A stretch of DNA of 64,000 nucleotides, taken from a bacterium (lineage in GTDB: Bacteria > Myxococcota_A > UBA9160 > UBA6930). The notes under the pieces were generated by a model. The model made no database searches. It was not told the origin of the DNA and saw nothing but the letters and a program-made list of their open reading frames with translations. The position numbers were made by a program, and so were the translations under genes. Of this stretch, positions 11,407 to 58,979 are shown one piece after another (within the stretch, counting starts at the first letter, position 1; each line of letters starts with the position of its first letter). The stretch spans positions 756-64,755 of the forward strand of contig JAAELW010000085.1 of NCBI GenBank assembly GCA_024226235.1, written 5' to 3'.

Positions 11407-12705
11407 TTACTGGCCGAGTTGCACGACATTGGCCAGCAGCTCGTTGACCACCGAGACCGTCCGGGTGTTCGATTGGAAAGCCCGCTGGTTGATGATCAAC
11501 CGCACGAACTGATCCGCCAGGTCCACGTTCGACTGCTCGAAGTTGTTGGCCCGAATCGCACCGAACTGGCCGGTGCGCGCCTCACCAACCAGCGGCTGAC
11601 CCGAAGCACGCGTCTCGAGCAGGTTGTTGTTGCCGGTCGCAGCCATTCCTTCGACGCTCGGGAACTGGGCCAGCGCGACCTGCACGATGTTTCGCGTCTC
11701 ACCGTTCGAGAAGCTGCCGACCATCATTCCGTCCGTGTCGATGCTGACCGCCTGCAACGCGCCCGGCGCGAAACCGTCCTGGGTCCTCGAGTTGATCGCA
11801 GATTCAGCAGCGTACTGCGTGGTCGGCTCACCGGTTCCGACTCCGGCCACCGGACCATAATCGAAATTCACGGCCTGCGCCGCGGCTGCACCACCCGAGA
11901 AGTTGAACGTCACCGGATTGCCGGTCAAGGCCGTCAGATCACCCGTAGCGTCGAACGTAAGCGTACCACCACCCATCACCACGTAGGGATCGGTCGGGGC
12001 CGCGGGCGCAGTCGTCGTATCAGCCGGAGCGACTGCCGCAGTCCAATCCCAGGTGTTCGCGGCCACTGCCTTGCTGAAGAAGATCGTCGTCGAATGCCCG
12101 GTTCCAAGCGAGTCGAACAATGTGACGGTCTGCTGGAAGTCCGATGTGAGTTGGGCGTTGGCCGGGTCGAACGGGACAGTGGGAGTCGTGACCGCGGCAT
12201 CAAGGTTCAACGACATGTTGACCGTGCCCGAGACCTGAGGGGATGCGATACCCGGAATCAACCGGATGTCAGTCAATGCGCCCGTCGAGGTGCCGGTGGT
12301 CTGATCGACCGTGAAGCCCTGAACATTGAACCCCTCCTTGTCGACCAGGTAGCCCTGGTTGTCGAAACCGAACAGACCGGCCCGCGTGTAACGGCGGCCG
12401 CCCGTTGCGTCGTCCAGGATGAAGAAGCCCGAGCCCTCGATCGCCATGTCCGTAGACCGCTCGCTGGATTCGAAGCTGCCCTGGCTGTCGACCCGAATGA
12501 TCCGCGCGACTCGCGCGCCGGACCCCGTCTGCGAGAAGCTGCCGCCGGTTCCCATGGCCTGGCCCAGGATGTCCGAAAATTCGGCGCGCCGCTGCTTGAA
12601 GCCGGGCGTGTTGACGTTGGCGATATTCTCTCCGATCACGGAGATGGCGGTGGAGCTGGTCTCGAGACCGGTGACGCTGGAAAACAATGCATTGGAAAGT
12701 GACAT
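11407..12705 (-). CDS. flgE: flagellar hook protein FlgE
   Basis: 432 aa; MSLSNALFSSVTGL...IANVNTPGFK N-terminus and FVRLIINQRAFQSNTR C-terminus. Confidence 0.95.
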   Translation of the reverse strand: MSLSNALFSSVTGLETSSTAISVIGENIANVNTPGFKQRRAEFSDILGQAMGTGGSFSQTGSGARVARIIRVDSQGSFESSERSTDMAIEGSGFFILDDATGGRRYTRAGLFGFDNQGYLVDKEGFNVQGFTVDQTTGTSTGALTDIRLIPGIASPQVSGTVNMSLNLDAAVTTPTVPFDPANAQLTSDFQQTVTLFDSLGTGHSTTIFFSKAVAANTWDWTAAVAPADTTTAPAAPTDPYVVMGGGTLTFDATGDLTALTGNPVTFNFSGGAAAAQAVNFDYGPVAGVGTGEPTTQYAAESAINSRTQDGFAPGALQAVSIDTDGMMVGSFSNGETRNIVQVALAQFPSVEGMAATGNNNLLETRASGQPLVGEARTGQFGAIRANNFEQSNVDLADQFVRLIINQRAFQSNTRTVSVVNELLANVVQLGQ

Positions 12706-14958: not shown

Positions 14959-15918
14959 TCACTGGGTGGAGGGCTTCGCGGGTTCCATTGCCAGCGGGTG
15001 CGCAACCCGACGGCTCATATCGAGAGCGCGCGTCACCGAGATGCGCGCCAGCACGGCAGCTGATTGCTTGTCCTTCATCTTCGCGACGATCTGGGTCGCG
15101 AGGCTCACGTCCAGCTCCTCCAGCAGGGACGCCGCCCGAGCTGGTTGAAGGGCTGAGTAGATCTTGGCGAGCTTTCGAACCGAATCGCCGTTATCGGCTT
15201 CCCAGGCTGCGATGCGCTCCTCGACCGTGCTCGCGATCTTCTCGAGCTCGACCAGCTGCTCGGCAATCGCTTGCTCCAGCTCGACGACAGCCTGCTCTCG
15301 CTCCGCTAGCTCCGCATCGCGTCGGTCGAGTTCCACCTGGCGGGTGCGAATCTCCGTCAGAAGCGTAGTCACGCCGTATTCGCTCTGGACCTTGGCGGGT
15401 TCTCCGTCCTGCTGGGCGACCGCTTCGAAAGGAACGACCCATGTTGCCGCGAATACGATGAACACCAACCAGCTCGCCAGGGGACGCGTTCCGAAGCGAC
15501 GCAATCCGGCTTCATCGAGCTGTCGCTGCTCCCGGCGAGCACGTTCGCGTTGCTCGCGTTGATGATGCAACGCTCTCATCCGCTCGAGCGCCTTGACTCG
15601 TTGACGCGCCTTCAGGACAGCATCACGACATACCGCAACCTGCTCTCGGGCGGTCGCGATCTCGGCCGTGGCTTCCAGGACCTCGTCGCCAAGCTGCGCA
15701 ATGCCGTCGGCGGCAATACGCAGCTCGCCCGAGTCGAGACCTCCCTGCAGGCGATCGCGCAAGATATCGCGCGCACGGTGAGCCCTCGCTCGTATTTCGT
15801 CCACCCGTTGAACGGCACGCGCCTCTGCACGCTCCGCCTGGACCAATTGAAAGGCCGCCTGATCGAGTTCGTGGCTTCGAACGCGCAGAACGGAACCGAG
15901 TCGGAAGCCCCGCCTCAT
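14959..15918 (-). CDS. fliJ: FliJ fused in frame to a TM + coiled-coil + MgtE_N-like (YlxF/FlbB/MotE-type) module
   Basis: Residues 1-138 are a FliJ-like coiled coil (ATGA overlap with the fliI stop). Residues ~145-165 are a TM helix (LASWLVFIVFAATWVV), followed by LAKIYSALQPARAASLLEELD...AKMKDKQSAAVLARI. No stop codon between; possible internal TTG at 15504. Confidence 0.8.
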   Translation of the reverse strand: MRRGFRLGSVLRVRSHELDQAAFQLVQAERAEARAVQRVDEIRARAHRARDILRDRLQGGLDSGELRIAADGIAQLGDEVLEATAEIATAREQVAVCRDAVLKARQRVKALERMRALHHQREQRERARREQRQLDEAGLRRFGTRPLASWLVFIVFAATWVVPFEAVAQQDGEPAKVQSEYGVTTLLTEIRTRQVELDRRDAELAEREQAVVELEQAIAEQLVELEKIASTVEERIAAWEADNGDSVRKLAKIYSALQPARAASLLEELDVSLATQIVAKMKDKQSAAVLARISVTRALDMSRRVAHPLAMEPAKPSTQ

Positions 15919-21269: not shown

Positions 21270-21662
21270 TCATCTGGCCTCGCCTGTGACCGCAATGCGC
21301 CGCAAGACCAGAAGTCTGGAGAGCACCGCCGCCTGGTCCTGGAAGGCCCCGGAGTTGCGATTGAGTGCGATCAGCTCGCTGTCGAGCTCAACCCCGTTAC
21401 CATCCGGCCGCGTGCCGCGAGGGCCACGAACGATCCGATAGTCGGCACTCGAGCCGGAGCCTCCGGTTCCGAGGTGCCGAGGGTCGGTTCGGTCGAGACG
21501 GGCTGAGGCGTCCGCGAGGGCCGATTCGAATTCGAGGTCCACCCGCCGGTAGCCAGGTGTATCCACGTTGGCGACGTTTCCAGCGAGTGCGGCCTGGCGT
21601 GCGAGCCGAAAGCGCATCGCGTCTTCCAGCAGCGGCATGGCTCCGATTTCCGGCCCGGGCAT
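21270..21662 (-). CDS. flgB: flagellar basal-body rod protein FlgB
   Basis: GNVANVDTPGYRR; ATG 21662 preceded by GGGAGGAAAGG; track ORF 21270..21785 is over-extended. Confidence 0.9.
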   Translation of the reverse strand: MPGPEIGAMPLLEDAMRFRLARQAALAGNVANVDTPGYRRVDLEFESALADASARLDRTDPRHLGTGGSGSSADYRIVRGPRGTRPDGNGVELDSELIALNRNSGAFQDQAAVLSRLLVLRRIAVTGEAR

Positions 21663-21705: not shown

Positions 21706-21721
21706 TGCAAGGCGAATGCCA
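21706..21721 (-). promoter_or_regulatory. sigma54 (-24/-12) promoter of the flgB operon
   Basis: Minus-strand reading TGGCATTCGCCTTGCA (TGGCAY-N5-TTGC), 44 nt upstream of flgB ATG. Confidence 0.8.
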
Positions 21722-21792
21722 CTGGGAAATGACGCCTCCGACACGCAGCGGGCGTTTCGGACCGAAGCAGCCTCCCGTGTTGCACCGCTGCA

Positions 21793-21805
21793 TTTCAACC
21801 TGAAC
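21793..21805. promoter_or_regulatory. TTTCA-N3-TGAAC palindromic motif (candidate enhancer/UAS), copy 1
   Basis: ATTTCAACCTGAACGGCGG, about 80 bp upstream of the flgB sigma54 promoter; 17/19 nt identical to copy 2. Confidence 0.55.
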
Positions 21806-21843: not shown

Positions 21844-23130
21844 TCAGGCGAGTTCGTACAGGCGGATCTTGTTGCGCAGGGTACGAACGCTGATTCCGAG
21901 CGCCTGGGAGGCCATGGTTCTGTTTCCGTCTGTGATTTCGAGCGAGCGGATCACCGCGGCGCGTTCCAGCTCGCGCAAGTTGAGCGAGCGCAATCTCGAA
22001 GACAGGGAATCCCCCGAGGCTCCACCGGATGAAACCAACCGGTCCAGGTCAATGGAACGCCCGGGGTAGAGCAGGGCGGCGCGACGCATCAGGTTCTCGA
22101 GCTCGCGGACGTTCCCACGAAACGGGCGGGTCGAGAGACTTGCAAGTGCGGAATCGCCGAGCTCTGCTTTCTCGGTTCCGGAGCTCTTGGCGAAGCGGTC
22201 CAGGAAGGAGTCGGCCAGGAGTGCGATGTCGCCGGGGCGCTCACGCAGCGGGGGAATCCGCAGACTGACGACATCGAGTCGATAGTAGAGGTCTGCGCGA
22301 AAACGACGAGCCGCTACTTCCCGATCCAGATCGCATTGCGTGGTCGCGACGACTCGTACGTCGAGCGCGTGCGATGTGCGGCCACCTAGCGGAATCACTT
22401 CTCGCTCCTGCAGTGCGCGTAGCAGCTTCGGCTGAAGATCGAGCCGCAGGTCTGCGACTTCGTCGAGCACCAATGTTCCACCATTGGCCGCAGCCAGCTG
22501 GCCGGACCGGGATTCGGTGGCGCCGGAAAACGCACCTTGGGCGTGCCCGAAGAGTTCGCTCTCCGCCAGCGCAGGCGTGAGACCTGCACAGCTCAGTACG
22601 ACGAAGGGTCCGCGTCGGCGGGTGCTCGCATCGTGAAGCCAGCGGGCAAGCAGCTCCTTTCCCGTTCCGGACTCTCCGACCAGACGAACCGTCGCTTCAC
22701 TCTTGGCAACTCGACGAAGTTGGTCCAGGACCGTACGCATGCGTGGATCTTGGGTCAAGAAGGTAGAATCCACTGGACCGTCGTTCTCTCTCCGCAAGAC
22801 CTGGGCCAAGGCCCGCTCCAGGGAGGACACGTCGAAGGGCATGCGCAGGTAGTCCGCCGCACCCACGCGGAATGCATCGACGACGAGGTCGACGCCGGGT
22901 TGCCCGCCCACCGCAACGACGCCGACGTCTGGCGCGACACGTCCGAGCTCTTCGACAAGGTGCAGGTCCGCGTGACAACTCACCTCGACGAGCGAGGCAT
23001 CGATATCGCCATCGGCTGCTCGTTCCAGAAGGACCGAATCGTCCGCTCCCTCTTCGGCCGCATAGCCGGCGGCGCGAACGACCGAGAGCACGTCCCGACG
23101 CAGACCTTCATCGCGCAACCGTGCGAGCAC
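21844..23130 (-). CDS. sigma54-dependent transcriptional activator (FleQ/FlrA-like) with degenerate receiver domain
   Basis: AAA+ core GESGTGKE, GAFSGA, C-terminal Fis-type HTH (ASQALGISVRTLRNKI). GTG 23130 lies 2 nt after the upstream stop. The N-terminal REC-like region lacks the acidic pocket, phospho-Asp and Lys. Confidence 0.9.
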   Translation of the reverse strand: MLARLRDEGLRRDVLSVVRAAGYAAEEGADDSVLLERAADGDIDASLVEVSCHADLHLVEELGRVAPDVGVVAVGGQPGVDLVVDAFRVGAADYLRMPFDVSSLERALAQVLRRENDGPVDSTFLTQDPRMRTVLDQLRRVAKSEATVRLVGESGTGKELLARWLHDASTRRRGPFVVLSCAGLTPALAESELFGHAQGAFSGATESRSGQLAAANGGTLVLDEVADLRLDLQPKLLRALQEREVIPLGGRTSHALDVRVVATTQCDLDREVAARRFRADLYYRLDVVSLRIPPLRERPGDIALLADSFLDRFAKSSGTEKAELGDSALASLSTRPFRGNVRELENLMRRAALLYPGRSIDLDRLVSSGGASGDSLSSRLRSLNLRELERAAVIRSLEITDGNRTMASQALGISVRTLRNKIRLYELA

Positions 23131-23132
23131 CC

Positions 23133-23717
23133 TCAATCCAGTTCTCCGGCTGGGATCCAGAACACGGCGCCATCCGCGGTAACCTCGGCTTCGGCGCCGC
23201 AAAGCAGTGCCAACGGTTGAAGGCGCTTCAAGATATCCGCTGCGTTCTGCGAACCCTCGCCTCTGGGCTGCCATCGGGCCTCGACGCCCCAGCAGCCATC
23301 ACCCGCCACAAGTCCCACTTCGAGAAGACCCGGCTGCGCCTGTTCTGCGGCCGCGCCGGTGAGAGCAATGACGGCCCGGCGCAACACGGCCGGATCCAGC
23401 GAGGGTGAATGCTTGGCGGCCACTTGCAGTTCGAGCCCGCGTGCTGCAAACACCGGACGCAACCGCTCGGTCAGTTCCTCGAGGACAGGTCCAGAGGGAC
23501 GCTCCCGCCCCGGGCTGGAAGGAGACAGCACGCGCAGCGCCAGCTCGAGCTGACGATCGATGGCCGCCACGGCTTCGTGGATGGATTGCGCAAGCTCCCC
23601 GGATCGGGGCGTTCGGTCTTCCCGATCGAGACGGCTGGCCGCGAGTTCGACGCGCGACAGAGGCGCACGGATGTCGAGAATCGCAGATGCCAACTCTGCG
23701 TCACGAGTCGCACTCAT
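23133..23717 (-). CDS. soluble histidine-kinase-like protein lacking the phospho-His and ATP-lid motifs
   Basis: 194 aa; H-box-like ILDIRAPLSRVELAASRL with Asp where His is expected. HATPase-like region (LRRAVIALTGAAAE, GLLEVGLVAGDG) has no N-box Asn or G-boxes. ATGA overlap with the upstream gene. Confidence 0.65.
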   Translation of the reverse strand: MSATRDAELASAILDIRAPLSRVELAASRLDREDRTPRSGELAQSIHEAVAAIDRQLELALRVLSPSSPGRERPSGPVLEELTERLRPVFAARGLELQVAAKHSPSLDPAVLRRAVIALTGAAAEQAQPGLLEVGLVAGDGCWGVEARWQPRGEGSQNAADILKRLQPLALLCGAEAEVTADGAVFWIPAGELD

Positions 23718-25861
23718 CGAAGAGCCTCTCCGCCTGGAAGGGCGGCGCGAGGCGACGATGAAAACTGCGATACACCCACCTCCTCTTGCAGATCGACGGC
23801 CCGCAGCTGGGCACTTGCCAATCGGCTCCAGAGCTCGGATGCGGCCTTCGATTCGGCGGCCTCTTCGTATGCTTGGCGTCGCTGTCGGCCTTCGGAGAGA
23901 CGCGCACGATGAAAACGCGCACGGGCACGCCTGGGACCATCGGGAAGCGCCTCGGCAGCGAGGCCGTAGTAGTAGTGGGCGCGCCTGGGTTCGCCTTCGG
24001 CGGCCAGCCGGTCGGCCAGGATCAGCGCGACACCCGCTCGAATGGAGACCTCGGCAACATCCGCCTGGGGGTCTGGCTCCAGTTGCCAACGCGACGTCTC
24101 GTCTTCGAGAAGAGTCCGAGCCTCCTGGCCGGCAGCCTGCTCGGCTACCAACTCCGCCAACCATCCAAGTGCTCGAAGGGGCGCGTCCGGGCGCCGCACG
24201 ATCGGCAGCAGGAGTTCGGCGGCTGCCTCCTTCCGACCCTCGCGTATCGCCAGCTCGGCCTCGAAGAGAGACCAGCTGTCACCGGCCAGGCCGCCCGCCG
24301 GAACATCCGCCGAACCACCTCCCCGTGTATGAGCTCGCAAAGCAGCGCGCACGGCGGGAAGATCTCCTGCACCCAATGAAGCCCGTGCGATCCGGAGCGT
24401 GAGCCGGGATGCGAGTTCGGGACCAAATGCCCGGGTCACCGCGCGATAGCTGGCCAACGCCGGCACCGACATGCCGAGCGCCAGATAGCAGTCGGCCAAT
24501 GCCACGAAGGGCTCGCTGACCCGGGCCTGGCGCAACAGCAGTTCGCGCCGGCCCCCCAGTCGACGTACGGTGGTCGGGCAATGGGATTCGACGGCTGCTA
24601 GAAGCGCAGCATCCAGGTCATCGCGATGGGTGGGTGCCAGCTCGTCATCCGGGTCGTCGTAGGCGAGCCGCGCATAGTCTTCCAATGCCTGGTCGACTTC
24701 ACCGGACTGCACATGCCGATGGAGGATCAATGCTCGGGCATGCAGTGAGAGGCCGCGTTCGGTGGAAATGGTGGCCTCGCGCAGCACTTCCATCCTGTCT
24801 GCCTCGGCGGCCTCCCCGAGCCCATGAGCCACGATCCGGAGCCCTGCGAGACGTCGGACATCCGGATCCGGATGCACATCGACGAGCCGCTCCAACGCCG
24901 TCAGTGCGTCCCCTCCGCGGCCGCGAGCCACCCACACATCCGCCTTGCGAATGGTCGCGAGACCGGTCGCAAGCTCATCGCCTTCGAGATCTGCAGCCCT
25001 GGAGATGTGAACCAGAGCGCGGCGCGAATCCCCCGCTCGAAGTGCGAACTCTGCGGCTACGCGTTCGAAGGCCCGCAAGTCCAGATCCCGGACGCGAGCC
25101 TCCTCGAAACGGGCGCGTAACCGCGTCCAGGCAGCTTTTGCGGGCAATTCCTTGTTCATCTCCGTAACCAGTCGCAGACGCGACGCCGTCGCCAGGCGCT
25201 CGACCGTTCCGCCGGCGAGGCTCTCGTAAAGGACGCGTGCCTCCTTTTTGCGACGAGAGAGGAGCATCGCCTCGGCCCGAAGGAACCGGGCAGCTTCGAC
25301 GCGGGCGATCGGGAGTTCTACTCCTTCTCCCTCTCGCAGCGCTCGCAGCGCCGATGCACTTGCTTCGGGGGCCTGGGCGTTATGGAGTTCCGCACGTCCG
25401 CGCTCCAGAAACCCACAAACCCGTGCTTCGCGGCTGCCGCCACGAGCCAGCGCATGGTCCAGGACGTGGATCGCATCCGCTCGGCGAATCCGCGTATCGG
25501 CGACCCTGGCACTGACGACCGCCAACCACAGGCGAAGATCCGTCGTGAGGCGTTCTCCCTCCTTGCGTCGTGCCTCCTCCGCGAGCTCGAGCACCCGGCG
25601 AGCCGCTGATTCACGATTCTCCAGCACGAAAGAAAGGACAGGCAGCAGTCCGGCCGGCGTCTCAGCCGGCAGGCAAGGTTCGAGGGCATCGAGCACGGGC
25701 AGCCAGGCCCGGCGAGTCGCAAAGATCCGGAACGGATCGGGCGGAACATCCACGGCTTCCGACGGCGGCATCTCCACCTCGGATTCGGCCAGACCTTCAC
25801 GGCCCGGAGCGACCAGCACCAGGATGACACCTACCAGGATAATCGGAATCCGGCGGTTCAC
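23714..25861 (-). CDS. membrane-anchored Ala/Arg/Leu-rich TPR-like repeat protein
   Basis: 715 aa from GTG 25861 (GTGA overlap with the PilZ stop); N-terminal TM RRIPIILVGVILVLVAPG; repeated helical-hairpin-like segments. Confidence 0.6.
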   Translation of the reverse strand: MNRRIPIILVGVILVLVAPGREGLAESEVEMPPSEAVDVPPDPFRIFATRRAWLPVLDALEPCLPAETPAGLLPVLSFVLENRESAARRVLELAEEARRKEGERLTTDLRLWLAVVSARVADTRIRRADAIHVLDHALARGGSREARVCGFLERGRAELHNAQAPEASASALRALREGEGVELPIARVEAARFLRAEAMLLSRRKKEARVLYESLAGGTVERLATASRLRLVTEMNKELPAKAAWTRLRARFEEARVRDLDLRAFERVAAEFALRAGDSRRALVHISRAADLEGDELATGLATIRKADVWVARGRGGDALTALERLVDVHPDPDVRRLAGLRIVAHGLGEAAEADRMEVLREATISTERGLSLHARALILHRHVQSGEVDQALEDYARLAYDDPDDELAPTHRDDLDAALLAAVESHCPTTVRRLGGRRELLLRQARVSEPFVALADCYLALGMSVPALASYRAVTRAFGPELASRLTLRIARASLGAGDLPAVRAALRAHTRGGGSADVPAGGLAGDSWSLFEAELAIREGRKEAAAELLLPIVRRPDAPLRALGWLAELVAEQAAGQEARTLLEDETSRWQLEPDPQADVAEVSIRAGVALILADRLAAEGEPRRAHYYYGLAAEALPDGPRRARARFHRARLSEGRQRRQAYEEAAESKAASELWSRLASAQLRAVDLQEEVGVSQFSSSPRAALPGGEALR

Positions 25862-26442
25862 TCCTCGCTCGCAACCCGTTGGCGAAGCTCCGAACGCTGG
25901 ATTTCGAGCACGTGAGCGATGATCGCATCGCGATCGCATTCGGCGATGACCGTGAAACCTGCCCCGATGGTCACCTGTTTTGCATCGACCTCGCATTCCG
26001 CGACTCGAGCAATGCAGCGCACCATGTGTTTGGGAATGCCGGGCAGGGTGACCTCGAGAAGCACGTCGGCCTCGATCGGTATCTCCTCGCAGACCGGAAG
26101 CTGGATCCCGGATCCGGAGATGGTCACTTCGAGAGCACCCTGTGCGGTCGTCCAGACATCGGCTTCCGTTTCGAAGCGTTCGAGCAGGAGGTCGAGCTTC
26201 CCCTCGATACGATCGAGCCATTCGGCGAGACCGGGATCGACTTTCGAAACCTCGGACGCCTCGCGAACCATGATGTCAGTAGACAGGCCCTCTAGCTCGG
26301 AATCCGCAATGCGCCGGCAACGTACCGGTAGAAAGGTGTGTACTCGGTAGTAGGAACGCTTGTCCGCACCGCGGGGCTGGGCTTTAGGAACGCTCAAGGG
26401 ACAATCCTCCAGACTTCTCGTACCGCTATCAGCAAATGGCAT
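25858..26442 (-). CDS. PilZ domain protein (putative c-di-GMP receptor)
   Basis: 194 aa; KRSYYRV (RRxxxR variant) and VTISGSGIQL ((D/N)xSxxG variant) separated by a helical insert. Confidence 0.7.
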   Translation of the reverse strand: MPFADSGTRSLEDCPLSVPKAQPRGADKRSYYRVHTFLPVRCRRIADSELEGLSTDIMVREASEVSKVDPGLAEWLDRIEGKLDLLLERFETEADVWTTAQGALEVTISGSGIQLPVCEEIPIEADVLLEVTLPGIPKHMVRCIARVAECEVDAKQVTIGAGFTVIAECDRDAIIAHVLEIQRSELRQRVASEE

Positions 26443-26606
26443 GCCAGGTCGGGACGCGTCAGGGGAACGCTTTGCGCACTCCGCGTTTCATCTTGCAAGC
26501 CTTTCCGTTTCAGCCGCAAGAAATTGAAGCTAGTTGGCGGAGAGTTACTTCCGTTCTGCCACTTCGTGTAAAGCTCTGGCAGGAATGCGCCGACGTGGGA
26601 TAAGTC

Positions 26607-27449
26607 ATGGCTCGAAGCTTCGAATCGATCAAGCGAGAACTCGAACGCCGCTACGACGCGGGCAAGATCGAGCTTCCCCCGTTGCCGGAAGTCGCTCAGC
26701 GGGTTCTGGAGACCGCATCCGATCCACTGACTGCCGCAACGGATCTCGCCACTCTCGTACACCGGGATCAGGGCCTGGCCGCTGAGGTCCTGAAGGGCGC
26801 CAACTCCGCGATGCAGGCGGGCCGGGTTGTCATCGTATCCCTGCAACAAGCCGTTGCGCGGCTCGGCATCGAGCGCGTGGTAGAGCTCGTGATCGCTGCC
26901 AGCATACGAGACGGCGTGTTCTCCGTACCTGGCTTCCAAGAAGAGCTCCGGCTGCTCTGGCGTCGCTCGCTAGGCACTGGCCTCTTTGCAAAAGAGGTGG
27001 CGCGTGTGCTTCGCGAAGACGTCGAAGCCGCCTTTCTCTCTGGACTCCTGCGTAGCGTCGGCACAGCCCTGTTGATCCGCGCCCTCGCCCGTCTTCGCCG
27101 TGCAGACGAACCCTCCATGCAGCCTGAAGATTTCCGGGAGCTGGACATCGCATTCCGCGTTCGACTGGGACTCGATGCGGCCTCGACCTGGGGGCTTCCT
27201 GACCATGTTCGCGATGCGATCGACTTCGACGAATCGACCGCACTGGAAGAGGGGAATGGGAACGCGCTGCTGATCTTGTTGGCCGAACGTCTCTTCGATC
27301 TGCTCGACACTGATGAAGCGAGCGAGGAGAAGGAGGAGGCACTTCGCAGTGATCCGATCCTCGACGAGTTGGGAGTCTACCCCGACGACCTGGATACGCT
27401 GTTCGGAAAGCGGGAGGAGATCCGGGATATGCTGGAGAGTGGCGGGTGA
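26607..27449 (+). CDS. HDOD domain protein
   Basis: 280 aa; LPPLPEVAQRVLETASDP...LATLVHRDQGLAAEVLKGANSA...SLQQAVARLG. Confidence 0.8.
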   Translation: MARSFESIKRELERRYDAGKIELPPLPEVAQRVLETASDPLTAATDLATLVHRDQGLAAEVLKGANSAMQAGRVVIVSLQQAVARLGIERVVELVIAASIRDGVFSVPGFQEELRLLWRRSLGTGLFAKEVARVLREDVEAAFLSGLLRSVGTALLIRALARLRRADEPSMQPEDFRELDIAFRVRLGLDAASTWGLPDHVRDAIDFDESTALEEGNGNALLILLAERLFDLLDTDEASEEKEEALRSDPILDELGVYPDDLDTLFGKREEIRDMLESGG

Positions 27450-28843
27450 CCAAGCGTACGAAAGTCGACCTTCTGGTTCTGGGCGGCGGGCCTGGCGGGC
27501 AGAAAGCAGCCATCGCTGCTGCGAAAGCGGGAAGACGGGTGATCCTCGTCGAATCGGGGCGGGATGTCGGCGGCGCCTGTGTCCACAAGGGAACCATCCC
27601 CAGCAAGGCGTTGCGTCAGCTCGCAGTCGAAGCTTGCGGCGACGACGACACGCTCGGAGATGCTGGCGAAGGGGAGAGGGCCATTCCCCTGGCCGAGATG
27701 AAGACCCGCGTCGATGCTGTGCGGGCTGGCCATAGCCGGTTCATGCGTGCTCAGCTCGAACGCAATGGGATCGGAATCGAGCGCGGTCGAGGCCGTTTCG
27801 AAACCGATCACGTGGTTTCGGTGACGACGCCGCGGGGCGCAGTCACGGAATTCGAAGCTGAACACATCATCATCGCCACTGGTTCGCGGCCTCGCGAACC
27901 CGACGGTTTTTCGATCAACCACGAGCATGTCCTCGATAGCGATTCGATCCTCTCGCTCAGCTACGTACCCGATAGCCTGGTCGTTCTGGGTGGTGGAGTG
28001 ATCGCGTGCGAATACGCTTCGATCTTCTTGACTCTGGGAAGTCAAGTGACGATCGTAGACCGTGCGCCGCGGCCATTGGCCTTTCTCGACCCGGATCTTT
28101 CCGCCGGCTACGTCGAAGCCTTCGAGCGCCGGGGTGGACGCTACGTCCCCGAAGCTCAGGCGACTGGAATCGAGTGGGACGGTTTCTCAAAAAACATGGT
28201 CGCCCTGGCGGATGGCAGCTTTTTCGAGGCCTCGAAGGTCCTTGTCGCCCTTGGCCGAGTCGGTTGTCTCCCCGAGCTGGCCCTCGAGCGGGCGGGCCTC
28301 GAGGCCAGTTCCCGCGGCCTGCTCGAGGTGGATCAGGATCTTCGGACTCGCGTGCCGCATATCTATGCGGTCGGCGACGTGATCGGACCACCGGCCTTGG
28401 CCACGACCGCGATGGAGCAAGGCCGCCGCGCTGCGACGCACGCCGTGGGTGGAAGCATAGCGGAAGGCGTATCCGCACTTCCGGTCGGTATCTACACGAT
28501 TCCCGACATGGCTACGGTCGGCCTTTCGGAATCCGAGGCTCGAGATCAGGGGTTCGAGGTTGCGGTCGGAAGAGCGCGCTTCGATGAACTCGCGCGAGCA
28601 CTCATCAACCACCGCACGGAAGGCTGGCTCAAGCTCGTTTCCGACCGCACGAACGGCCGTATTCTCGGCGTGCAGATCCTGGGCGAGAACGCAACGGATC
28701 TGATCCACGTCGGGCAGGTGGCCATCCACGCGGGTTGGAGTGCGGACGATTTCGTCGAGAACGCCTTCAACTTCCCGACCTTCACCGAGGCTTACCGCGT
28801 GGCCAGTCTCGCAGTGCTTGAGGAACTCACGCCTACTGGTTAG
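27446..28843 (+). CDS. sthA: soluble pyridine nucleotide transhydrogenase-like flavoprotein (SthA / Lpd family)
   Basis: 465 aa; GGGPGG FAD motif and GGACVHKGTIPSKALR (single Cys, Thr at the second Cys position as in SthA); GTGA overlap with the HDOD stop. Confidence 0.75.
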   Translation: MTKRTKVDLLVLGGGPGGQKAAIAAAKAGRRVILVESGRDVGGACVHKGTIPSKALRQLAVEACGDDDTLGDAGEGERAIPLAEMKTRVDAVRAGHSRFMRAQLERNGIGIERGRGRFETDHVVSVTTPRGAVTEFEAEHIIIATGSRPREPDGFSINHEHVLDSDSILSLSYVPDSLVVLGGGVIACEYASIFLTLGSQVTIVDRAPRPLAFLDPDLSAGYVEAFERRGGRYVPEAQATGIEWDGFSKNMVALADGSFFEASKVLVALGRVGCLPELALERAGLEASSRGLLEVDQDLRTRVPHIYAVGDVIGPPALATTAMEQGRRAATHAVGGSIAEGVSALPVGIYTIPDMATVGLSESEARDQGFEVAVGRARFDELARALINHRTEGWLKLVSDRTNGRILGVQILGENATDLIHVGQVAIHAGWSADDFVENAFNFPTFTEAYRVASLAVLEELTPTG

Positions 28844-28873: not shown

Positions 28874-29998
28874 TCAACCCTCTTCATCCTGGGTGGGTTC
28901 CGAAGCTTCGGGAGCTATGGTGTCGATCGCGAGAGCGATTCGATCCCGCCCCAACTCCTTGGCCTGATAGAGTGCGCGATCCGCTCGATCGAACCAACTC
29001 CTGGCATTCTCACCTGGCTCGAGTCGCGCCGCACCGATCGAGACCGAAACCCGGATCGGCTCGTCCTCGCCCTCACAGGGGATGTCGAGTTCGCGGATCG
29101 CAAAGAGCAGCCTGTCGCCGATTCGGTTTGCCGTTTCGAGGCTGTCTTCGAGGATCACGGCCGAGAATTCGTCCCCACCGTAGCGGGCCAGGAAGTCGCC
29201 CTTGCGTCGGAAGGTGACGGACAGTCTCGCTGCTACCTGACGAAGCACGTCATCACCCGCCGCATGGCCGTAGCGATCGTTGACCCATTTGAAGTGGTCC
29301 ACATCGATCATGAACAGGATGGCGGGCTGCCGGAGCACCAGGCCCAGGCTGACCACACGTGAGACCTGCCGATCGAGGCCAGCGCGGTTGCAAACCTCTG
29401 TCAACGCATCGACCGAAAGTTGCTCCTTGACCTCCACGAGTTCACTCGCCATCTCGTTGACCTGGTCTGAGAGATCGTCGATCTGTCCCTGCTCTCGGAT
29501 CTTCCGACCTTCGATTCGACTCTGGATCAGTGAAATCGACGAGAGTGCCTCTCGCTTCAAGACCTCAGTGTCATTCGATTCGACGGCCCGGCGAAGATCG
29601 AGCATCTTGGCTGCGACTTCACCGTCCGCCTGGCGGTCCTCGGAGATCGCCTGACCGAGGCTCTGGATGAACTGCCAGATCACCTGACGAAGGTCGTCCA
29701 GGCTACGCGTGACGAAGTCGTACTCGGCCCTGCGATGCTCGCGAACGAAACGTCCGAGCCCATTCCAATCCTTCTGATTGGCGGGCGGCGTCGACGGATC
29801 GTCGAGACCCGGACGCGGTGACGCCAACACCGCATGACGGGCCCAGCCCTCGAAATCCTGTTGGATCTCTTCTTCGGAGCGCCCCGCAATTTCGATTGCC
29901 AACTCGCCCCAGGTGCGCAGCGCACCGGCGAGTGCATCGAGCACTGCGTCTTCGTCGTTTCCGGTCTTGGGCGAGCGCTTCTTCGAGGTCGGTGCCAC
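28874..29998 (-). CDS. diguanylate cyclase (GGDEF) with intact I-site
   Basis: GGDEF preceded by RKGD five residues upstream (RxxD I-site). GTG 29998 preferred (AAGGAGGT 4 nt upstream) over track start 30034. The N-terminal ~200 aa are helical and unrecognised. Confidence 0.9.
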   Translation of the reverse strand: MAPTSKKRSPKTGNDEDAVLDALAGALRTWGELAIEIAGRSEEEIQQDFEGWARHAVLASPRPGLDDPSTPPANQKDWNGLGRFVREHRRAEYDFVTRSLDDLRQVIWQFIQSLGQAISEDRQADGEVAAKMLDLRRAVESNDTEVLKREALSSISLIQSRIEGRKIREQGQIDDLSDQVNEMASELVEVKEQLSVDALTEVCNRAGLDRQVSRVVSLGLVLRQPAILFMIDVDHFKWVNDRYGHAAGDDVLRQVAARLSVTFRRKGDFLARYGGDEFSAVILEDSLETANRIGDRLLFAIRELDIPCEGEDEPIRVSVSIGAARLEPGENARSWFDRADRALYQAKELGRDRIALAIDTIAPEASEPTQDEEG

Positions 29999-30050
29999 AG
30001 GTACCTCCTTGGCACCTGTTTCGGCCGATTGCACGTCGCGGAAGATCGGG

Positions 30051-30791: not shown

Positions 30792-31811
30792 TCACATCCG
30801 ACGAGCCGCCGCCACTGCCTTCTGGATCTCCCCCAGATCGTAAGGGCGCAGCACGAAGCCGCGAGCGCCGCTTCGAAGCGCACTCTCCACCATCCCGCGC
30901 GTCGCCTTTTCGTGGGCCAGTAGCGCAACGGTTCCGGACGTCTGTTCATTGTGTACCAGGTGCTCGACGAACTCGAGACCCGACCGGCCTCCCAGCTGCC
31001 AGGCCACGATCACGGCATCTGCTTCCTCGATCGATTCCAGACTGTCATCATCGAAATCGCTGGGATCGATGGCTTCGACTTCCTTGTCCTTCTCCTCACC
31101 CTCCTCTTCGATGCGATCCCGTTCCTCGCCATCCGAGTCGATGATGATGACGGATACCTCCTCCTCGGGAACCTCCTCCGCGTCCTCTCCCGAGGCTTGG
31201 TCGAGCAGCACCAGGAATGGAGTCGCATCGAAACCTTCGATGTCCAACTCCAGTTGGATGCACCACTGGGATCCGTCTCCAAGCCAGGACGTATCGCTCG
31301 AGGCGTCTTCCAGCGGTTGGGCTTCCTGAAGCTGGAGTGCACCGATTTCATGGGGTTCGAGCAGACGTGAGAGCACCGCGGAAGCGAGCTTCATGACCTC
31401 GCCGAAGCCCTCGGCGTGAGCGGCAAAATCTCCGCCGTCTCTGGCCTCGCTGACTGCCTCTCCTTCGAGGCCAGCCTGAAGAGCCCCGAGGCCAATGGCG
31501 TCCGGAACCGGACAGAGGATGTGTACGTTCAGCGGTTGATCGTCATCGCTGAGGAGCGCCTGATCGACAACCTCGTCCGGACACTCGAGCTCATCTGGCT
31601 CGACCGCACTCGCACCTTTGGCCGAAACCTCGGCTGCCGATCCGAGCAATGCGCTCAGATCCTTGGAGAAGGCCTTGGCAAATTGCTGGCCGACCTCGGA
31701 AAGGCCCGCCTCATCGAGATCGCCCCCGTCGCTATCGTCTTGGTTCTCTGCCTCTTCCTCTTCGATCTCTTCGGCTTCTTCCTCCGTTCCGTCGGTCTCT
31801 TCTTCGCTCAT
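30792..31811 (-). CDS. highly acidic protein with C-terminal degenerate receiver (REC)-like domain
   Basis: 339 aa; poly-Glu/Asp N-terminus and linker. C-terminus VSVIIIDSDGEE...DAVIVAWQLGGRSGLEFVEHL...VALLAH...GFVLRPYDL follows a REC layout but has Trp/Gln at the phospho-Asp position and Arg for Lys. 4-nt overlap with the upstream gene. Confidence 0.6.
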   Translation of the reverse strand: MSEEETDGTEEEAEEIEEEEAENQDDSDGGDLDEAGLSEVGQQFAKAFSKDLSALLGSAAEVSAKGASAVEPDELECPDEVVDQALLSDDDQPLNVHILCPVPDAIGLGALQAGLEGEAVSEARDGGDFAAHAEGFGEVMKLASAVLSRLLEPHEIGALQLQEAQPLEDASSDTSWLGDGSQWCIQLELDIEGFDATPFLVLLDQASGEDAEEVPEEEVSVIIIDSDGEERDRIEEEGEEKDKEVEAIDPSDFDDDSLESIEEADAVIVAWQLGGRSGLEFVEHLVHNEQTSGTVALLAHEKATRGMVESALRSGARGFVLRPYDLGEIQKAVAAARRM

Positions 31812-34081: not shown

Positions 34082-34906
34082 CTACTGGAGCAAGGCCAAC
34101 GCGTTCTGCGTCGACACATTCGCCTGGGCGAGCACCGAGATACCAGCCTGTTGCAGAACCTGGTTCCGCGTCAAGATGGCGGTCTCCGATGCAATGTCGA
34201 CGTCCCGGATTCGAGACTCGGCAGCCGCTGTATTCTCGACCGAGACCGCGATCGAACGGATCGTGGACTCGAGACGATTTTGAGCGGTACCGAAACCGGC
34301 GCGCAGAGACGCGACGGTGCCGATGGCCGAGTCGATCAACGACAGGGCCGCCTGGGCGTTGGTCACCGTATCAATACCAGCTCCGCTGATACCGATTCCA
34401 GTCGATGTGGCGTTCACGCCAGTGACCGTGATCTGGTCATTGGTTGTGTTGTCCACGCCCACCTGGAAGGTGATGCTGGCCGCAGTACCGTCCAACAGCG
34501 AAGTGCCATTGAACTCGGTGACCTGGGCAATTCGTCCGATCTCGGACACCAGGTCGTTGAACTCGTTGTCCAGTGTCGTACGCTCGGCGGTCCCGAGGGT
34601 GCCGTTTGCCGATTGGATCGCGAGTTCGCGCAGGCGCGTCAGAATGCCACTCGACTCGTTGAGGGCACCTTCCGCGGTCTGCAGCAGCGAGATGCCGTCA
34701 TTGGCATTTCGCTGCGCCTGCTGAAGGCTCCGCACCTCTGCGCGGAACCGCTCGGAGATCGCCAGCCCGGCTGCATCATCGGACGCGCGGGTAATCCGCA
34801 AGCCCGAAGACAGTCGTTCCAGCGAACGCTGCAGGTTGTTGGTCGTATTTGACAGGTTTCGCTGCGCGTTAAGCGAAGCGATGTTCGTGTTGACTCGAAG
34901 ACCCAT
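34082..34906 (-). CDS. fliC: flagellin (short, 274 aa)
   Basis: MGLRVNTNIASLNAQRNLS...LSSGLRITRASDDAAGLAISE and C-terminal LAQANVSTQNALALLQ; ATG 34906 with GGAGGAAAG SD. Confidence 0.95.
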   Translation of the reverse strand: MGLRVNTNIASLNAQRNLSNTTNNLQRSLERLSSGLRITRASDDAAGLAISERFRAEVRSLQQAQRNANDGISLLQTAEGALNESSGILTRLRELAIQSANGTLGTAERTTLDNEFNDLVSEIGRIAQVTEFNGTSLLDGTAASITFQVGVDNTTNDQITVTGVNATSTGIGISGAGIDTVTNAQAALSLIDSAIGTVASLRAGFGTAQNRLESTIRSIAVSVENTAAAESRIRDVDIASETAILTRNQVLQQAGISVLAQANVSTQNALALLQ

Positions 34907-34935
34907 GGGGTTTTCTTTCCTCCGTGAACGGTCCT

Positions 34936-34958
34936 GGCTCACCTATCCTTGGTGAGCC
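34936..34958 (-). promoter_or_regulatory. 5'UTR hairpin presenting a GGA loop (candidate CsrA binding site 1)
   Basis: mRNA sense GGCUCACC-AAGGAUA-GGUGAGCC. Further GGA motifs at 34931..34935 (AGGAC) and in the SD 34916..34924 (CGGAGGAAA). Confidence 0.6.
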
Positions 34959-35079: not shown

Positions 35080-35095
35080 TGCAAGGCGGGTGCCA
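35080..35095 (-). promoter_or_regulatory. sigma54 (-24/-12) promoter of flagellin
   Basis: Minus-strand reading TGGCACCCGCCTTGCA, about 175 nt upstream of ATG 34906. Confidence 0.8.
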
Positions 35096-42964: not shown

Positions 42965-43743
42965 CAGATGTTCGCTGCAGTCTGGAGCATCTCGTCACCG
43001 GCCTGAATCACGCGGCTGTTCACTTCGAATGCGCGTTGAGCCAGGATCATCTTCACCAACTCTTCGGCCATGTTCACGTTCGACGATTCGAGAAACCCCT
43101 GGCCGATCGTGCCGAAGCCCGTGGACCCAGGTGTTCCGGTCTCTGCGTCGCCAGACGACTCGCTCGGAACGAACAGGTTGTTGCCCAGAGCGCGCATCCC
43201 AGAGGGATTCGCGAAGCGCGCAATTTCGAGCTGCCCGAGCTGCTGGGGTGCCGTTTGTCCCGCGATCAGCGCCGAAACGGTCCCATCTTGCAACACTGTC
43301 ACCTGAATGGCATCGATCGGAATCTGGATGTTGGGATCGAGAAGATTCCCCTGGTCGTTCACCAGGTTGCCGTCGGAATCCAGATGGAAAGAGCCGTCGC
43401 GGGTATAGAGGACCTGGCCACCGGTATCCGCGATCTGGAAGAGGCCATCGCCATCGATCGAGAGGTCGAAGTCTCGGCCCGTATTCGTTCGAGTGCCCTG
43501 TGAGAAGACCCGATTCATACCACCGAGCTTCACCCCGTGTCCCACCTGGGCTCCGGTCGGCAGTGTCGTGCCGTCTGCCGACTGGGCTCCCGGAGCTTGA
43601 AGGGTCTCATAGAAGAGATCCTGGAATTCGGCGCGACTCTTCTTGAAGCCGGTCGTGGAGACGTTCGCCAGGTTGTTGGCGATCGTGTCAATGCGGAGCT
43701 GCTGGGCGTCCATCCCGGTCGCCGCTGTGAACATTGCCCTCAT
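42964..43743 (-). CDS. flgG: flagellar distal rod protein FlgG
   Basis: 259 aa; TGMDAQQLRIDTIANNLANVSTTGFKKSRAEFQDL, C-terminal MILAQRAFEVNSRVI. Confidence 0.95.
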   Translation of the reverse strand: MRAMFTAATGMDAQQLRIDTIANNLANVSTTGFKKSRAEFQDLFYETLQAPGAQSADGTTLPTGAQVGHGVKLGGMNRVFSQGTRTNTGRDFDLSIDGDGLFQIADTGGQVLYTRDGSFHLDSDGNLVNDQGNLLDPNIQIPIDAIQVTVLQDGTVSALIAGQTAPQQLGQLEIARFANPSGMRALGNNLFVPSESSGDAETGTPGSTGFGTIGQGFLESSNVNMAEELVKMILAQRAFEVNSRVIQAGDEMLQTAANI

Positions 43744-44518: not shown

Positions 44519-44534
44519 AGCAAGACCCATGCCA
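44519..44534 (-). promoter_or_regulatory. sigma54 (-24/-12) promoter of the flgF-to-fliW operon
   Basis: Minus-strand reading TGGCATGGGTCTTGCT, about 40 nt upstream of the flgF start. Confidence 0.8.
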
Positions 44535-56329: not shown

Positions 56330-56559
56330 TTTGGAGCCACCTCGTTCGCGTCTCCGCGAATAACTGCCGGCGGGAGAGGGTGAGCCGGCTGCTGTCATGG
56401 GCTCATCGATCGGCGGAAGAACGGGCCACCTTGACGGTATTTTTGGACTTTTCCGTCGTGGCTGGATTTCGAGGCGCGGTGGTTGGGGGTCTACTGCCTC
56501 ATTTCAGCCGGTCGTTTCAGGTGTTTCAAGGAGAAAGGTCAGGCGGAAGATTCTTCCAC

Positions 56560-58205: not shown

Positions 58206-58799
58206 CTACCCCAGTGCTTCGTTGGAACAGAGCGGTGCGACTCTTCCTCGAGTCTCTCCGAGCACGGGCGCGATCTCATACTCCAGGTAGTCGGCCACGC
58301 GAATCCAATCTTGCGCTTGCTGGGCATCCGCCAACGCATCCAGCCACGGCTGCACCTTGGCGGTGATCTCCTCGACCGAATTTGCTTCGGGACCGAGGTG
58401 CTGGGAAGCCGCCTGGAGCGTGAAGAGCAGAATCGACATCGCGTCGATCGTGTCGATGAAGCTGTCGTTCGCGACTTCCGGTCGATCCGTGCGCATCAGC
58501 TGTGCCGTCTTGAAGAGCGCCTCTCGAACGCGGTCCGCGTACTCTCCGGCGCTTGCCAGGCTCTGTCGGGCGACCTCGCACACTGAAGCGGTTTCGACAT
58601 CGACCCGCTCGCATTCGTCCAGCGAAACCCTCGACAAGTCATCGAGGTCTCCCGCGGGTACCTCCTGGCCGTCGAGCGACAACCGGACCACCACTCGGGG
58701 CTCGGCCTCCGGCCGATTCAGGTACGGGAGAAGCAGGCTTTCCACATCCGTATGGATTCCTTCGACTTCTGCCTCTTGGCCATCCTTGATCAGGCGCAT
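58206..58799 (-). CDS. hypothetical protein, first gene of the sigma54-driven motAB unit
   Basis: 197 aa from ATG 58799 (AAGGAGGT SD lies between the two candidate ATGs); acidic, N-terminal beta-rich and C-terminal helical; no family recognised. Confidence 0.65.
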   Translation of the reverse strand: MRLIKDGQEAEVEGIHTDVESLLLPYLNRPEAEPRVVVRLSLDGQEVPAGDLDDLSRVSLDECERVDVETASVCEVARQSLASAGEYADRVREALFKTAQLMRTDRPEVANDSFIDTIDAMSILLFTLQAASQHLGPEANSVEEITAKVQPWLDALADAQQAQDWIRVADYLEYEIAPVLGETRGRVAPLCSNEALG

Positions 58800-58856
58800 G
58801 GGACCTCCTTGTCGCATTGCGGCTGGTTGTTGCCTCTGTCGGTTGTTCCGGTTCGC

Positions 58857-58872
58857 TGCAAGTGGCGCGCCA
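58857..58872 (-). promoter_or_regulatory. sigma54 (-24/-12) promoter toward hypothetical-motA-motB
   Basis: Minus-strand reading TGGCGCGCCACTTGCA, 58 nt upstream of ATG 58799. Confidence 0.7.
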
Positions 58873-58888: not shown

Positions 58889-58966
58889 CTCAGGTCCTGA
58901 TGCGGCCTTCTCTCGCCTGTTGGAGCGAGAAGAGGGTGGATCGGGTTCCCGATCGAAACCGCGACG

Positions 58967-58979
58967 TTTCAATCTGAAA
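58967..58979. promoter_or_regulatory. TTTCA-ATC-TGAAA perfect palindrome (candidate enhancer/UAS), copy 4
   Basis: GTTTCAATCTGAAAGCG, about 100 bp upstream of the motA-side sigma54 promoter and inside the leader of the plus-strand operon. Confidence 0.55.

Follow-up and report, generated by a model that had tools for sequence, protein, structure and literature searches.

The 64,000-nucleotide (nt) stretch of DNA analysed here (the window; positions 756 to 64,755 of contig JAAELW010000085.1, assembly GCA_024226235.1, from a bacterium of the Myxococcota_A) contains a flagellar island in which flgB and the genes that follow it are preceded by a four-gene cassette. The cassette consists of four consecutive, co-directional open reading frames (ORFs) on the minus strand, from 21844 to about 26400, which encode in this order a PilZ protein that models as the tetrameric type (tPilZ), an apparently secreted tetratricopeptide repeat (TPR)-like protein, a stand-alone pseudo-histidine kinase and an NtrC/FlbD-class sigma-54 activator with a pseudo-receiver domain. 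The reading that we favor, to which we give about an even chance, is that the cassette is one sigma-54-transcribed operon, shared by uncultured Myxococcota with flagella, that contains a fossil two-component pair, in which the pseudokinase would control the pseudo-receiver activator by stoichiometric binding, and that the PilZ and TPR proteins are co-expressed accessories. A first-pass annotation of this DNA had proposed that protein partners replace phosphorylation in the control of the activator. For the pseudokinase and the activator, which would act through direct contacts, this is still the best reading; the proposed link from the PilZ protein to the activator is no more likely than a role at the motor.

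The kinase-like protein was said in the first-pass annotation to lack the acceptor histidine, and this is the case: Leu14 stands at that place, in the sequence L-D-I-R-A-P-L as against H-E-L-R-T-P-L. The AlphaFold2 (AF2) model of the protein, with a predicted local distance difference test (pLDDT) score of 79.8, has a helical hairpin (the dimerization and histidine phosphotransfer, or DHp, domain) followed by an alpha/beta catalytic and ATP-binding (CA) domain. Foldseek matched this model to the kinase cores of ZraS (the best match), CpxA, RetS, EnvZ and DivL (E = 3e-8, of the order of 1e-8), and a profile search reached the same chains. When the family profile is aligned to ZraS and EnvZ, the leucine lies opposite the acceptor histidine and the ATP-lid region is a gap of 16-18 residues; the positions aligned with the N, G1 and G2 boxes have neither the Asn nor DxGxG or GxGxG. 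All close family members have Leu14. Among 150 listed members of at most 260 amino acids (aa), the histidine column holds Leu, Val, Ala or Ile in 110 and a gap in 21, and His was found in 2, both from the weak tail. HATPase_c of Pfam matched none of 89 family members and HisKA matched 33.

The family to which this protein belongs is large. A HMMER search returned 385 cluster representatives, 114 of them at E <= 1e-10, and the weak end of the list includes longer true kinases. Nearly all members of the pseudokinase family are stand-alone proteins of 190-225 aa. In a word-indexed search the family members scored 138 bits or more, and the true kinases that came next did not exceed 60 bits. These nearest kinases are AtoS/ZraS-like proteins of about 380 aa with a PAS-HisKA-HATPase architecture (one is labelled FlrB by its source), a class whose members serve as partners of NtrC-family activators. 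The pseudokinase family itself reached no Pfam or NCBIfam model. A chance ORF in high-GC DNA was considered and rejected on account of the large family, the confident fold and the conserved position, and a truncated true kinase was rejected since nearly all members have the same 190-225 aa length and the gene is complete between overlapping neighbors. Stand-alone pseudo-histidine kinases of about 200 aa make up a family that has apparently not been described before, and every member examined is encoded at the same genomic place.

The neighboring activator retains its output domains and has lost its input chemistry. Its Pfam matches are Sigma54_activat (201 bits), AAA_lid_14 and HTH_8 (32.7 bits), and Response_reg is reached only at E = 0.014. 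Walker A (GESGTGK), Walker B (LVLDE) and the sigma-54 contact loop GAFSGA, a T-to-S variant, are intact, and the closest solved relatives are NtrC4, ZraR, NifA, FlrC and FleQ. Compared with the canonical second activator of the window, the receiver domain has LR in place of DD, E in place of the acceptor D, G in place of T and M in place of K, and the full phosphorylation set is kept in no family member. The best NCBIfam model is FlbD (NF050807), at 330.5 bits against a cut-off of 750 that is not reached; the FleQ domain (PF06490) gave no match at E <= 0.1. The cassette therefore places a kinase fold without kinase chemistry beside an AAA+ activator that has lost the receiver quintet. Both the nearest true kinases of the pseudokinase and its best structural match, ZraS, are partners of NtrC-family activators, which further argues for the favored reading. 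The four family assignments of the first-pass annotation were essentially right, as judged from Pfam matches in the window and in orthologues and from Foldseek searches with the PilZ and kinase-like models.

The first-pass annotation had made its proposal depend on the four genes being syntenic in related genomes. The order tPilZ-TPR-pseudokinase-activator was found in all of eleven distinct loci, namely the window's own (L002), L001, L003, L004/5/6, L007, L008/9, L010/11, L012, L014, L015 and L016, and a twelfth contig has the same order by gene calls alone. The window also matches contig JAAEUC010000518 of assembly GCA_024227775.1. A profile scan of genome contigs with the close-family alignment gave 2 loci, and a scan of metagenomes also gave 2; synteny was compared mainly through contigs that encode family members. 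The pseudokinase gene directly precedes the activator gene in 11 of 11 loci, and in most of them the two overlap by NTGA, while the identity of the pseudokinase to that of the window falls to about 30% across the loci. Wherever the contig continues, flgB-flgC-fliE-fliF-fliG-fliH-fliI follows directly after the cassette. The relatives are labelled Deltaproteobacteria bacterium or Myxococcota bacterium by NCBI, with one Spirochaetaceae, and none is cultured. The exception in this list, L007 (CAZETS010000027), is a high-GC contig with the full cassette from a metagenome-assembled genome that bears the label 'uncultured Spirochaetaceae'. This points either to a wrong label or contamination of the bin, or to an occurrence of the cassette beyond the Myxococcota.

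The genes of the cassette are also tightly joined. Two of the overlaps first described were confirmed: the PilZ stop codon and the GTG start codon of the TPR gene share GTGA at 25858-25861, and the TPR stop codon and the ATG of the kinase-like gene share ATGA at 23714-23717. The activator gene had been called coupled to the kinase-like gene from a GTG at 23130. The coupling holds, but the likeliest start codon is TTG 23136, two codons upstream, which produces a TTGA overlap with the pseudokinase stop codon, as in the orthologues, and which matches the beginning of the orthologous activators, MRV[LMV]ARLRD. The start of the PilZ gene, first placed at ATG 26442, was moved 15 codons further in to TTG 26397, since the ATG falls within a sigma-54 element. 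Orthologues and NCBI gene calls support the TTG start, and a GGAGGA lies seven bases before it. An exact look-up of the 194-aa PilZ ORF that begins at ATG 26442 found no match because the real gene encodes the 179-aa form. Gene calling by GC content at the third codon position was not discriminating at 62% GC and was set aside. No sigma-70-like promoter was found within the four-gene unit, and the two weak terminator-like hairpins within it are below the count in shuffled sequences.

Over the eleven loci the junctions of the cassette have the -4 spacing in 29 of 38 cases and overlap in 35 of 38. The operon might merely co-express four early flagellar genes that act independently, a reading that we consider improbable. 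In its favor, -4 overlaps are frequent in this flagellar island (of the 14 other junctions between co-directional genes within the surrounding 20 kb, 4 have one), the NTGA-type overlap is the commonest gene spacing in prokaryotes (PMC12548453), and a DUF8042 gene associated with the cassette has moved between operons (see below). Because such overlaps are common both in this genome and in prokaryotes, three in a row are only mildly unusual. However, the four-gene order is invariant over 11 loci despite divergence to the level given above, and a kinase fold beside a receiver is a hallmark of cognate pairs.

A second sigma-54 activator is encoded in the window, and its receiver domain is canonical. 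Its gene is located just downstream of motA-motB with no histidine kinase gene adjacent, and TGAAAYG-type motifs are present upstream of it (56500-56536). The motA gene lies at 57306-58070. The cassette activator is degenerate in several other lineages. The GAFTGA loop is deleted in the orthologues of L007, L010, L012 and L014; in L016 the loop reads GAFVGA and Walker B is degenerate (LLAD), L010 and L012 have a degenerate Walker A as well, and the Walker A lysine or the Walker B acidic pair is lost in several of these five loci. GAFTGA is kept in L008 and L015, and the window's clade has GAFSGA or GVYTGA. All loci with a degenerate activator keep the pseudokinase, a near-invariant helix-turn-helix (HTH; GNRTxASxxLGISVRTLRNKI) and both sigma-54 promoters. 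This suggests that the conserved core is formed by the pseudo-receiver, the HTH and the pseudokinase and excludes sigma-54 activation, that the ancestral role may not be activation, and that the partner surface conserved along with the pseudokinase is not the sigma-54 contact. On these sequences, another activator must fire the promoters in the degenerate lineages. It is conceivable, though in our view rather unlikely, that the canonical activator of the window drives all sigma-54 flagellar promoters and that the atypical protein with its pseudokinase is a modulator that binds enhancer sites as a repressor, an anti-activator or a hetero-oligomer partner of the kind known from FleQ/FleT and HrpR/HrpS. 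Such a role would accommodate the losses in L007, L010, L012, L014 and L016 and the complete receiver of the second activator, but the AAA+ determinants (GAFSGA, GVYTGA or GAFTGA; Walker A and B) are all intact in the window, in its closer relatives and in L008 and L015. The standing of a master regulator at the head of the flagellar regulon, which had first been given to the cassette activator, is unproven: the operon has its own sigma-54 promoter, a canonical second activator is present, and about half of the lineages have lost GAFTGA and/or Walker motifs.

The TPR protein had been taken for a membrane-anchored cytoplasmic scaffold. This is contradicted by an N-terminal Sec-type signal peptide (positive n-region, hydrophobic h-region and AxA-like site) predicted in eight of nine orthologues, by four invariant cysteines (C63, C149, C428 and C458) and by the absence of another conserved hydrophobic segment; the orthologues have none, and the window protein has one borderline stretch. 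From these features we conclude that the protein is probably exported and soluble in the periplasm. A lipoprotein was considered and rejected, as most orthologues are without a lipobox cysteine. Pfam TPR models give only weak, sub-threshold matches in the window protein, and exceed their cut-offs in the orthologues from L007 (TPR_12, 31.2; TPR_6, 27.9) and L014 (TPR_19, 28.9; TPR_6, 28.7), which align with it along their full length. The search with NCBIfam returned nothing for this protein, and a profile of nine orthologues found nothing better than E = 0.02 among solved structures, those matches being generic TPR proteins. Most simply, the protein may act as a periplasmic motor-associated scaffold, by analogy with PflA and PflB of Campylobacter, FlcA of Borrelia and MotX of Vibrio, which we take to be comparable periplasmic motor scaffolds built of TPR or Sel1-like repeats (SLR). 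The likeness lies in large size, apparent secretion, the TPR type and a gene in a flagellar locus, and has no support from sequence similarity. MotX, like the window protein, depends on cysteines.

A periplasmic TPR protein could make no direct contact with the cytoplasmic PilZ protein, pseudokinase or activator. This bears on the most inclusive alternative, that all four proteins form one assembly in which a flagellar master activator is under the joint control of the pseudokinase, a TPR scaffold anchored in the membrane and a PilZ protein with bound c-di-GMP (cyclic di-GMP). We regard such an assembly as quite unlikely. The four genes are indeed syntenic and overlapping at every locus, the RxxxR motif of the PilZ protein is conserved, and genes for GGDEF and HDOD proteins adjoin, all of which would agree with it. 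Against it stand the predicted periplasmic location of the TPR protein, which has a signal peptide and invariant cysteines and no membrane anchor, and the other three proteins, which have no transmembrane segment to bridge the membrane. In addition, the operon has a sigma-54 promoter of its own, and the window encodes another activator. One cytoplasmic complex of all four proteins is unlikely in view of the apparent export of the TPR protein and of FlgX, a tPilZ protein known to belong to the stator.

The PilZ protein is, as far as its model and motifs tell, of the tetramer type. Two features define tPilZ proteins, a two-helix insert and the interlock motif [DENH]x[KR]h[DEN] (10.1101/814665; PMC11725899). 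The alignment and the model place an insert of about 58 aa with two helices between beta1 and beta2 (at low confidence in the model), and the interlock motif is EGKLD in the window and E-x-K-[LI]-D, without exception, in nine orthologues. In the AF2 model (pLDDT 62) the six strands of the beta-barrel and a long C-terminal helix are clear and the insert is poorly defined. Foldseek returned XCC6012 (3ph1/3rqa) as the best match, followed by the motor clutch MotI, and also BcsA and Alg44. The Pfam PilZ model scores 20.1 bits in the window protein (cut-off 22.5) and 22.8-44.6 bits in four orthologues. Pfam tPilZ (PF16823) does not match the window protein and reaches at best 17 bits, in the L014 orthologue (cut-off 25), and NCBIfam gave nothing for the protein; the tPilZ family is hard to detect by sequence (PMC11725899). 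The first c-di-GMP motif, RxxxR, is RSYYR and is kept in all orthologues. In the second, TISGSG, the Ser and Gly are conserved and Thr occupies the D/N position, D/N being kept only in L008. PA2989, a tPilZ protein that has RxxxR and carries Ser at the D/N position, is a c-di-GMP binder (188 nM), whereas FlgX and XCC6012 are without the c-di-GMP motifs and do not bind it (PMC11725899; 10.1101/814665). Most plausibly, judging from its motifs, the window protein would bind c-di-GMP.

The only flagellar tPilZ protein with a known function is FlgX, a c-di-GMP-independent structural partner of the stator (PMC11725899). The target of the window protein could likewise be the stator, as this precedent, the structural match to MotI and the link between DUF8042 and motAB suggest, or it could be the regulator pair; a role at the motor seems, by analogy, at least as likely as one on the activator. 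The latter role is the basis of an alternative that we think has a small chance of being correct, in which the tetrameric PilZ protein senses c-di-GMP, binds the pseudokinase or the activator and shuts down flagellar transcription in place of FleQ-style binding, with the TPR protein as unrelated cargo. The conserved RxxxR and xxSxxG motifs, the intact interlock motif and a GGDEF gene conserved nearby in the closer relatives would fit this model. It is opposed by FlgX, which binds the stator and not a regulator (PMC11725899), by MotI as the next structural match after the tPilZ entries, and by the DUF8042 gene in front of motAB in the window, which points to a stator link. In five more distant loci (L008, L010, L012, L015 and L016) the DUF8042 gene is the first gene of the cassette and overlaps the PilZ gene, so that it appears to have moved to the front of motA-motB in the window's lineage. 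NCBIfam yielded nothing for the DUF8042 protein. Upstream of the gene, the window has a TTCAGATTGAAAC motif (58966-58978) and a sigma-54 element that departs from the consensus at one position (58858-58872).

Transcription of the cassette and of the genes that it precedes is apparently sigma-54 dependent. An exact TGGCA-N6-TTGC is present on the gene strand at four sites in the window: before flgB, the cassette, the flagellin gene and flgF. The promoter of the cassette has counterparts of the same type at the same place in 10 orthologous loci. The flgB promoter, which had been predicted earlier, is real, is located 44 nt ahead of the flgB ATG (21662) and is kept in 9 of the 9 orthologous loci that include the interval. 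A motif of the type TTC-N4-TGAAAYG lies about 70-130 bp upstream of each promoter. The palindrome first described near flgB, at about 21785-21804, is made up of this upstream motif and of an imperfect inverted repeat whose arms occupy 21740-21751 and 21785-21796. These sites served, post hoc, to define the pattern TTS-N4-TGAAAY, of which the window has 8 occurrences where 1.0 would be expected; none of 100 shuffles gave as many as 8. Six of the eight are in flagellar promoter regions. A related motif, TTTC-N4-TGAAAYG, precedes flgB in most orthologous loci, and equivalent motifs precede the cassette too. With its own sigma-54 promoter and upstream motif, the cassette is likely to be autoregulated or controlled by the second activator.

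Before the flagellin gene and flgF, a TTC-N4-TGAAAY motif occurs 100-135 bp upstream of each sigma-54 element. No fliA (sigma-28) gene was found among the window ORFs scanned, and together with the sigma-54 elements at flagellin and flgF this suggests that late genes may also be sigma-54 dependent. In L001, a 5.8-Mb relative, a YjbR-family gene (11859-12200) is inserted between the activator gene and the flgB promoter region, and the upstream motif and sigma-54 promoter persist downstream of the insertion. The coordinates of the features are collected in Table 1.

Table 1. Genes, promoters and upstream motifs of the cassette and related features. Positions are those of the window unless a locus is named.
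Feature	Position	Strand	Remarks
tPilZ gene (predicted type)	25858..26397	-	179 aa; TTG start behind GGAGGA Shine-Dalgarno sequence
Gene for predicted secreted periplasmic TPR-like protein	23714..25861	-	715 aa; GTG start
Stand-alone pseudo-histidine kinase gene	23133..23717	-	194 aa; DHp and degenerate CA domain
NtrC/FlbD-class sigma-54 activator gene, with pseudo-receiver	21844..23136	-	430 aa; TTG start
flgB, first gene of downstream flagellar operon	21270..21662	-	Flg_bb_rod; 88% identity in L001
Sigma-54 -24/-12 promoter of cassette, TGGCATGCCATTTGC	26432..26446	-	Exact match; overlaps ATG 26442
Activator-site-like motifs upstream of cassette	26484..26519	-	TGAAACG at 26484-26490 and 26506-26512; TTGCGGCTGAAAC at 26507-26519
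Sigma-54 -24/-12 promoter of flgB-flgC-fliE-fliF... operon, TGGCATTCGCCTTGC	21707..21721	-	Exact match
Activator-site-like region upstream of flgB	21740..21804	-	TTCAGGTTGAAAT at 21792-21804 and inverted repeat
Sigma-54 -24/-12 element before flagellin gene (34082-34942)	35081-35095	-	Exact match
Sigma-54 -24/-12 element before flgF (43740-44480)	44520-44534	-	Exact match
Second sigma-54 activator gene	54899-56398	-	Canonical receiver (DD, D, T and K all present); Response_reg 64.5 bits, Sigma54_activat 231.6 bits, HTH_8
DUF8042 gene homologue	58206..58817	-	Upstream of motA-motB; tblastn E = 9e-38 to 1e-20
DUF8042 genes of other loci	L008 6767-7375; L010 6881-7480; L012 6851-7450; L015 6801-7406; L016 6755-7381		Roughly 200 aa

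In the scheme that we infer, its contacts and sign of regulation included, the pseudokinase dimer would still dock on the activator, at the pseudo-receiver or at the AAA+ domain, and would set the oligomeric state of the activator by stoichiometric binding, without phosphorylation. The overlapping stop and start codons would hold the ratio of pseudokinase to activator fixed. Bound at TTC-N4-TGAAAYG sites, the activator would drive flgB and, by autoregulation, its own operon from their sigma-54 promoters. The tPilZ protein may pass a c-di-GMP signal to the stator, in the manner of FlgX or YcgR, or to the pseudokinase-activator pair, and the secreted TPR protein, presumably disulfide bonded, would work in the periplasm, most likely as a motor scaffold.

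Several points weigh against this scheme. NTGA overlaps are common here, so the coupling alone does not prove a complex and is weak evidence. All family members come from metagenomes and uncultured organisms. About half of the related lineages carry an activator unable to contact sigma-54 or hydrolyse ATP and keep the sigma-54 promoters, and the canonical second activator could be the true activator of these promoters in the window. In the PilZ protein, Thr takes the place of D/N in the second c-di-GMP motif, and the confidence of its model is no more than moderate.

A more far-reaching extension, which we offer as speculation with little probability, is a phosphorylation-free checkpoint across the envelope. 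The TPR protein would report assembly of the rod, rings or stator in the periplasm and the tPilZ protein would report c-di-GMP, and both would converge through the motor on the pseudokinase that gates the activator; in half of the lineages the activator would have decayed to a non-ATPase scaffold that binds enhancer sites and recruits the second activator. If true, the loci would preserve, like fossils, successive steps by which a two-component system became a switch that works through protein interaction alone.

The window as a whole is a complete flagellar island (flgE to flgB, fliD, flagellin, flgK/L, flgF-I, flhA/B/F/G, fliM-R and motAB), and further genes in it encode a GGDEF cyclase, two HDOD proteins and a protein of 339 aa that contains a receiver domain. 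Divergent from the cassette, an HDOD protein and a pyridine-nucleotide-disulfide oxidoreductase are encoded with a 4-nt overlap on the plus strand (26607-28843); this pair is conserved in the closer relatives L001, L003 and L004, and a second HDOD gene follows flhG (44991-45848). Between fliS/fliT and the cassette are the genes for the GGDEF diguanylate cyclase (28874-30034, minus strand) and for the 339-aa protein, whose receiver domain is C-terminal (30792-31811, minus strand), both conserved in the closer relatives. The gene at 14959-15918 (minus strand) encodes a FliJ fused to an MgtE_N-like C-terminal domain (319 aa), the two parts of which are separate in L008, L010, L015 and L016 (about 148 aa and 168-226 aa). 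Genes for a NeuB-like sialic/legionaminic acid synthase and a cytidylyltransferase (61153-63200, plus strand) flank the flagellar genes and are also found in the upstream regions of L008, L015 and L016; MptE/Maf-like genes flank the flagellar genes in other loci. The presence of these neighbors suggests flagellin glycosylation.

To our knowledge, cultured myxobacteria have no flagella, and we know of nothing published on the regulation of the flagella predicted in uncultured Myxococcota, for which the cassette is an obvious candidate. A literature search on pseudokinases and flagellar sigma-54 regulators found no description of this cassette. Each component is of a known kind, but the pseudokinase family, the combination and the phyletic setting do not appear to have been described.

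The tPilZ proteins XCC6012, PA2989 and Campylobacter jejuni FlgX resemble the window protein in fold, in the insert of two helices and in the interlock motif [DENH]x[KR]h[DEN], at very low sequence identity. FlgX is a flagellar protein (PMC11725899), as the window protein is by context. Like PA2989, and unlike FlgX and XCC6012, the window protein keeps RxxxR and most of the second motif. The cassette may thus provide a second flagellar context for a tetrameric PilZ protein, here with the c-di-GMP motifs retained.

For the regulator pair, NifL-NifA is, by analogy, the closest functional precedent and FliX-FlbD the second. NifL of the Proteobacteria is homologous to histidine kinases but has no kinase activity; by stoichiometric binding it sequesters the activator NifA in a 2:2 complex, helped by the co-transcription and translational coupling of nifL and nifA (PMC12998190, PMC12548453). 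In both systems the gene of a kinase homologue without kinase chemistry adjoins that of a sigma-54 activator, with translational coupling between the two; binding is proven for NifL, and we infer it here. NifL has two PAS domains and a nucleotide-binding GHKL domain, whereas the window pseudokinase is a bare 194-aa DHp and CA unit in which no nucleotide site can be recognised. Instead of the GAF domain of NifA, the window activator keeps a degenerate receiver, and its targets would be flagellar genes. FlbD of Caulobacter crescentus has a divergent receiver that is without some of the phosphorylation residues, is active without phosphorylation and is controlled by binding of FliX (PMC3096577). 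FlbD is a flagellar sigma-54 activator and, although at 330 against a cut-off of 750, the best NCBIfam model of the window activator; the partner here has a kinase fold and is not FliX-like, and flbD ends the fliF operon whereas the window activator gene precedes flgB.

FleQ and FlrA, flagellar sigma-54 activators of Pseudomonas and Vibrio, have a non-phosphorylatable N-domain, are controlled by c-di-GMP and an antiactivator, and stand above a second, canonical two-component activator that is lower in the cascade (PMC3930126). The window resembles the FleQ/FlrA-FleN systems in that flhF and flhG (fleN) are present, but the activator has no match to the Pfam FleQ domain and the partner genes differ. 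Its gene lies behind a sigma-54 promoter, unlike fleQ, which is sigma-70 dependent according to the title of reference 100 in PMC3930126. The cassette is also similar to FlgS-FlgR, FleS-FleR and FlrB-FlrC, in which a soluble kinase-fold protein is found beside an NtrC-family flagellar activator. In contrast to those systems, both halves of the pair here have lost phosphotransfer chemistry, with no acceptor histidine, no ATP site and no aspartate pocket. The loci form a natural series in which both halves of a two-component system have lost that chemistry and are still genetically locked together, and in which the sigma-54 ATPase has decayed too in some lineages. Such a series is useful for asking how the docking surfaces of kinases and receivers become pure binding switches, a theme that the cassette shares with NifL and DivL.

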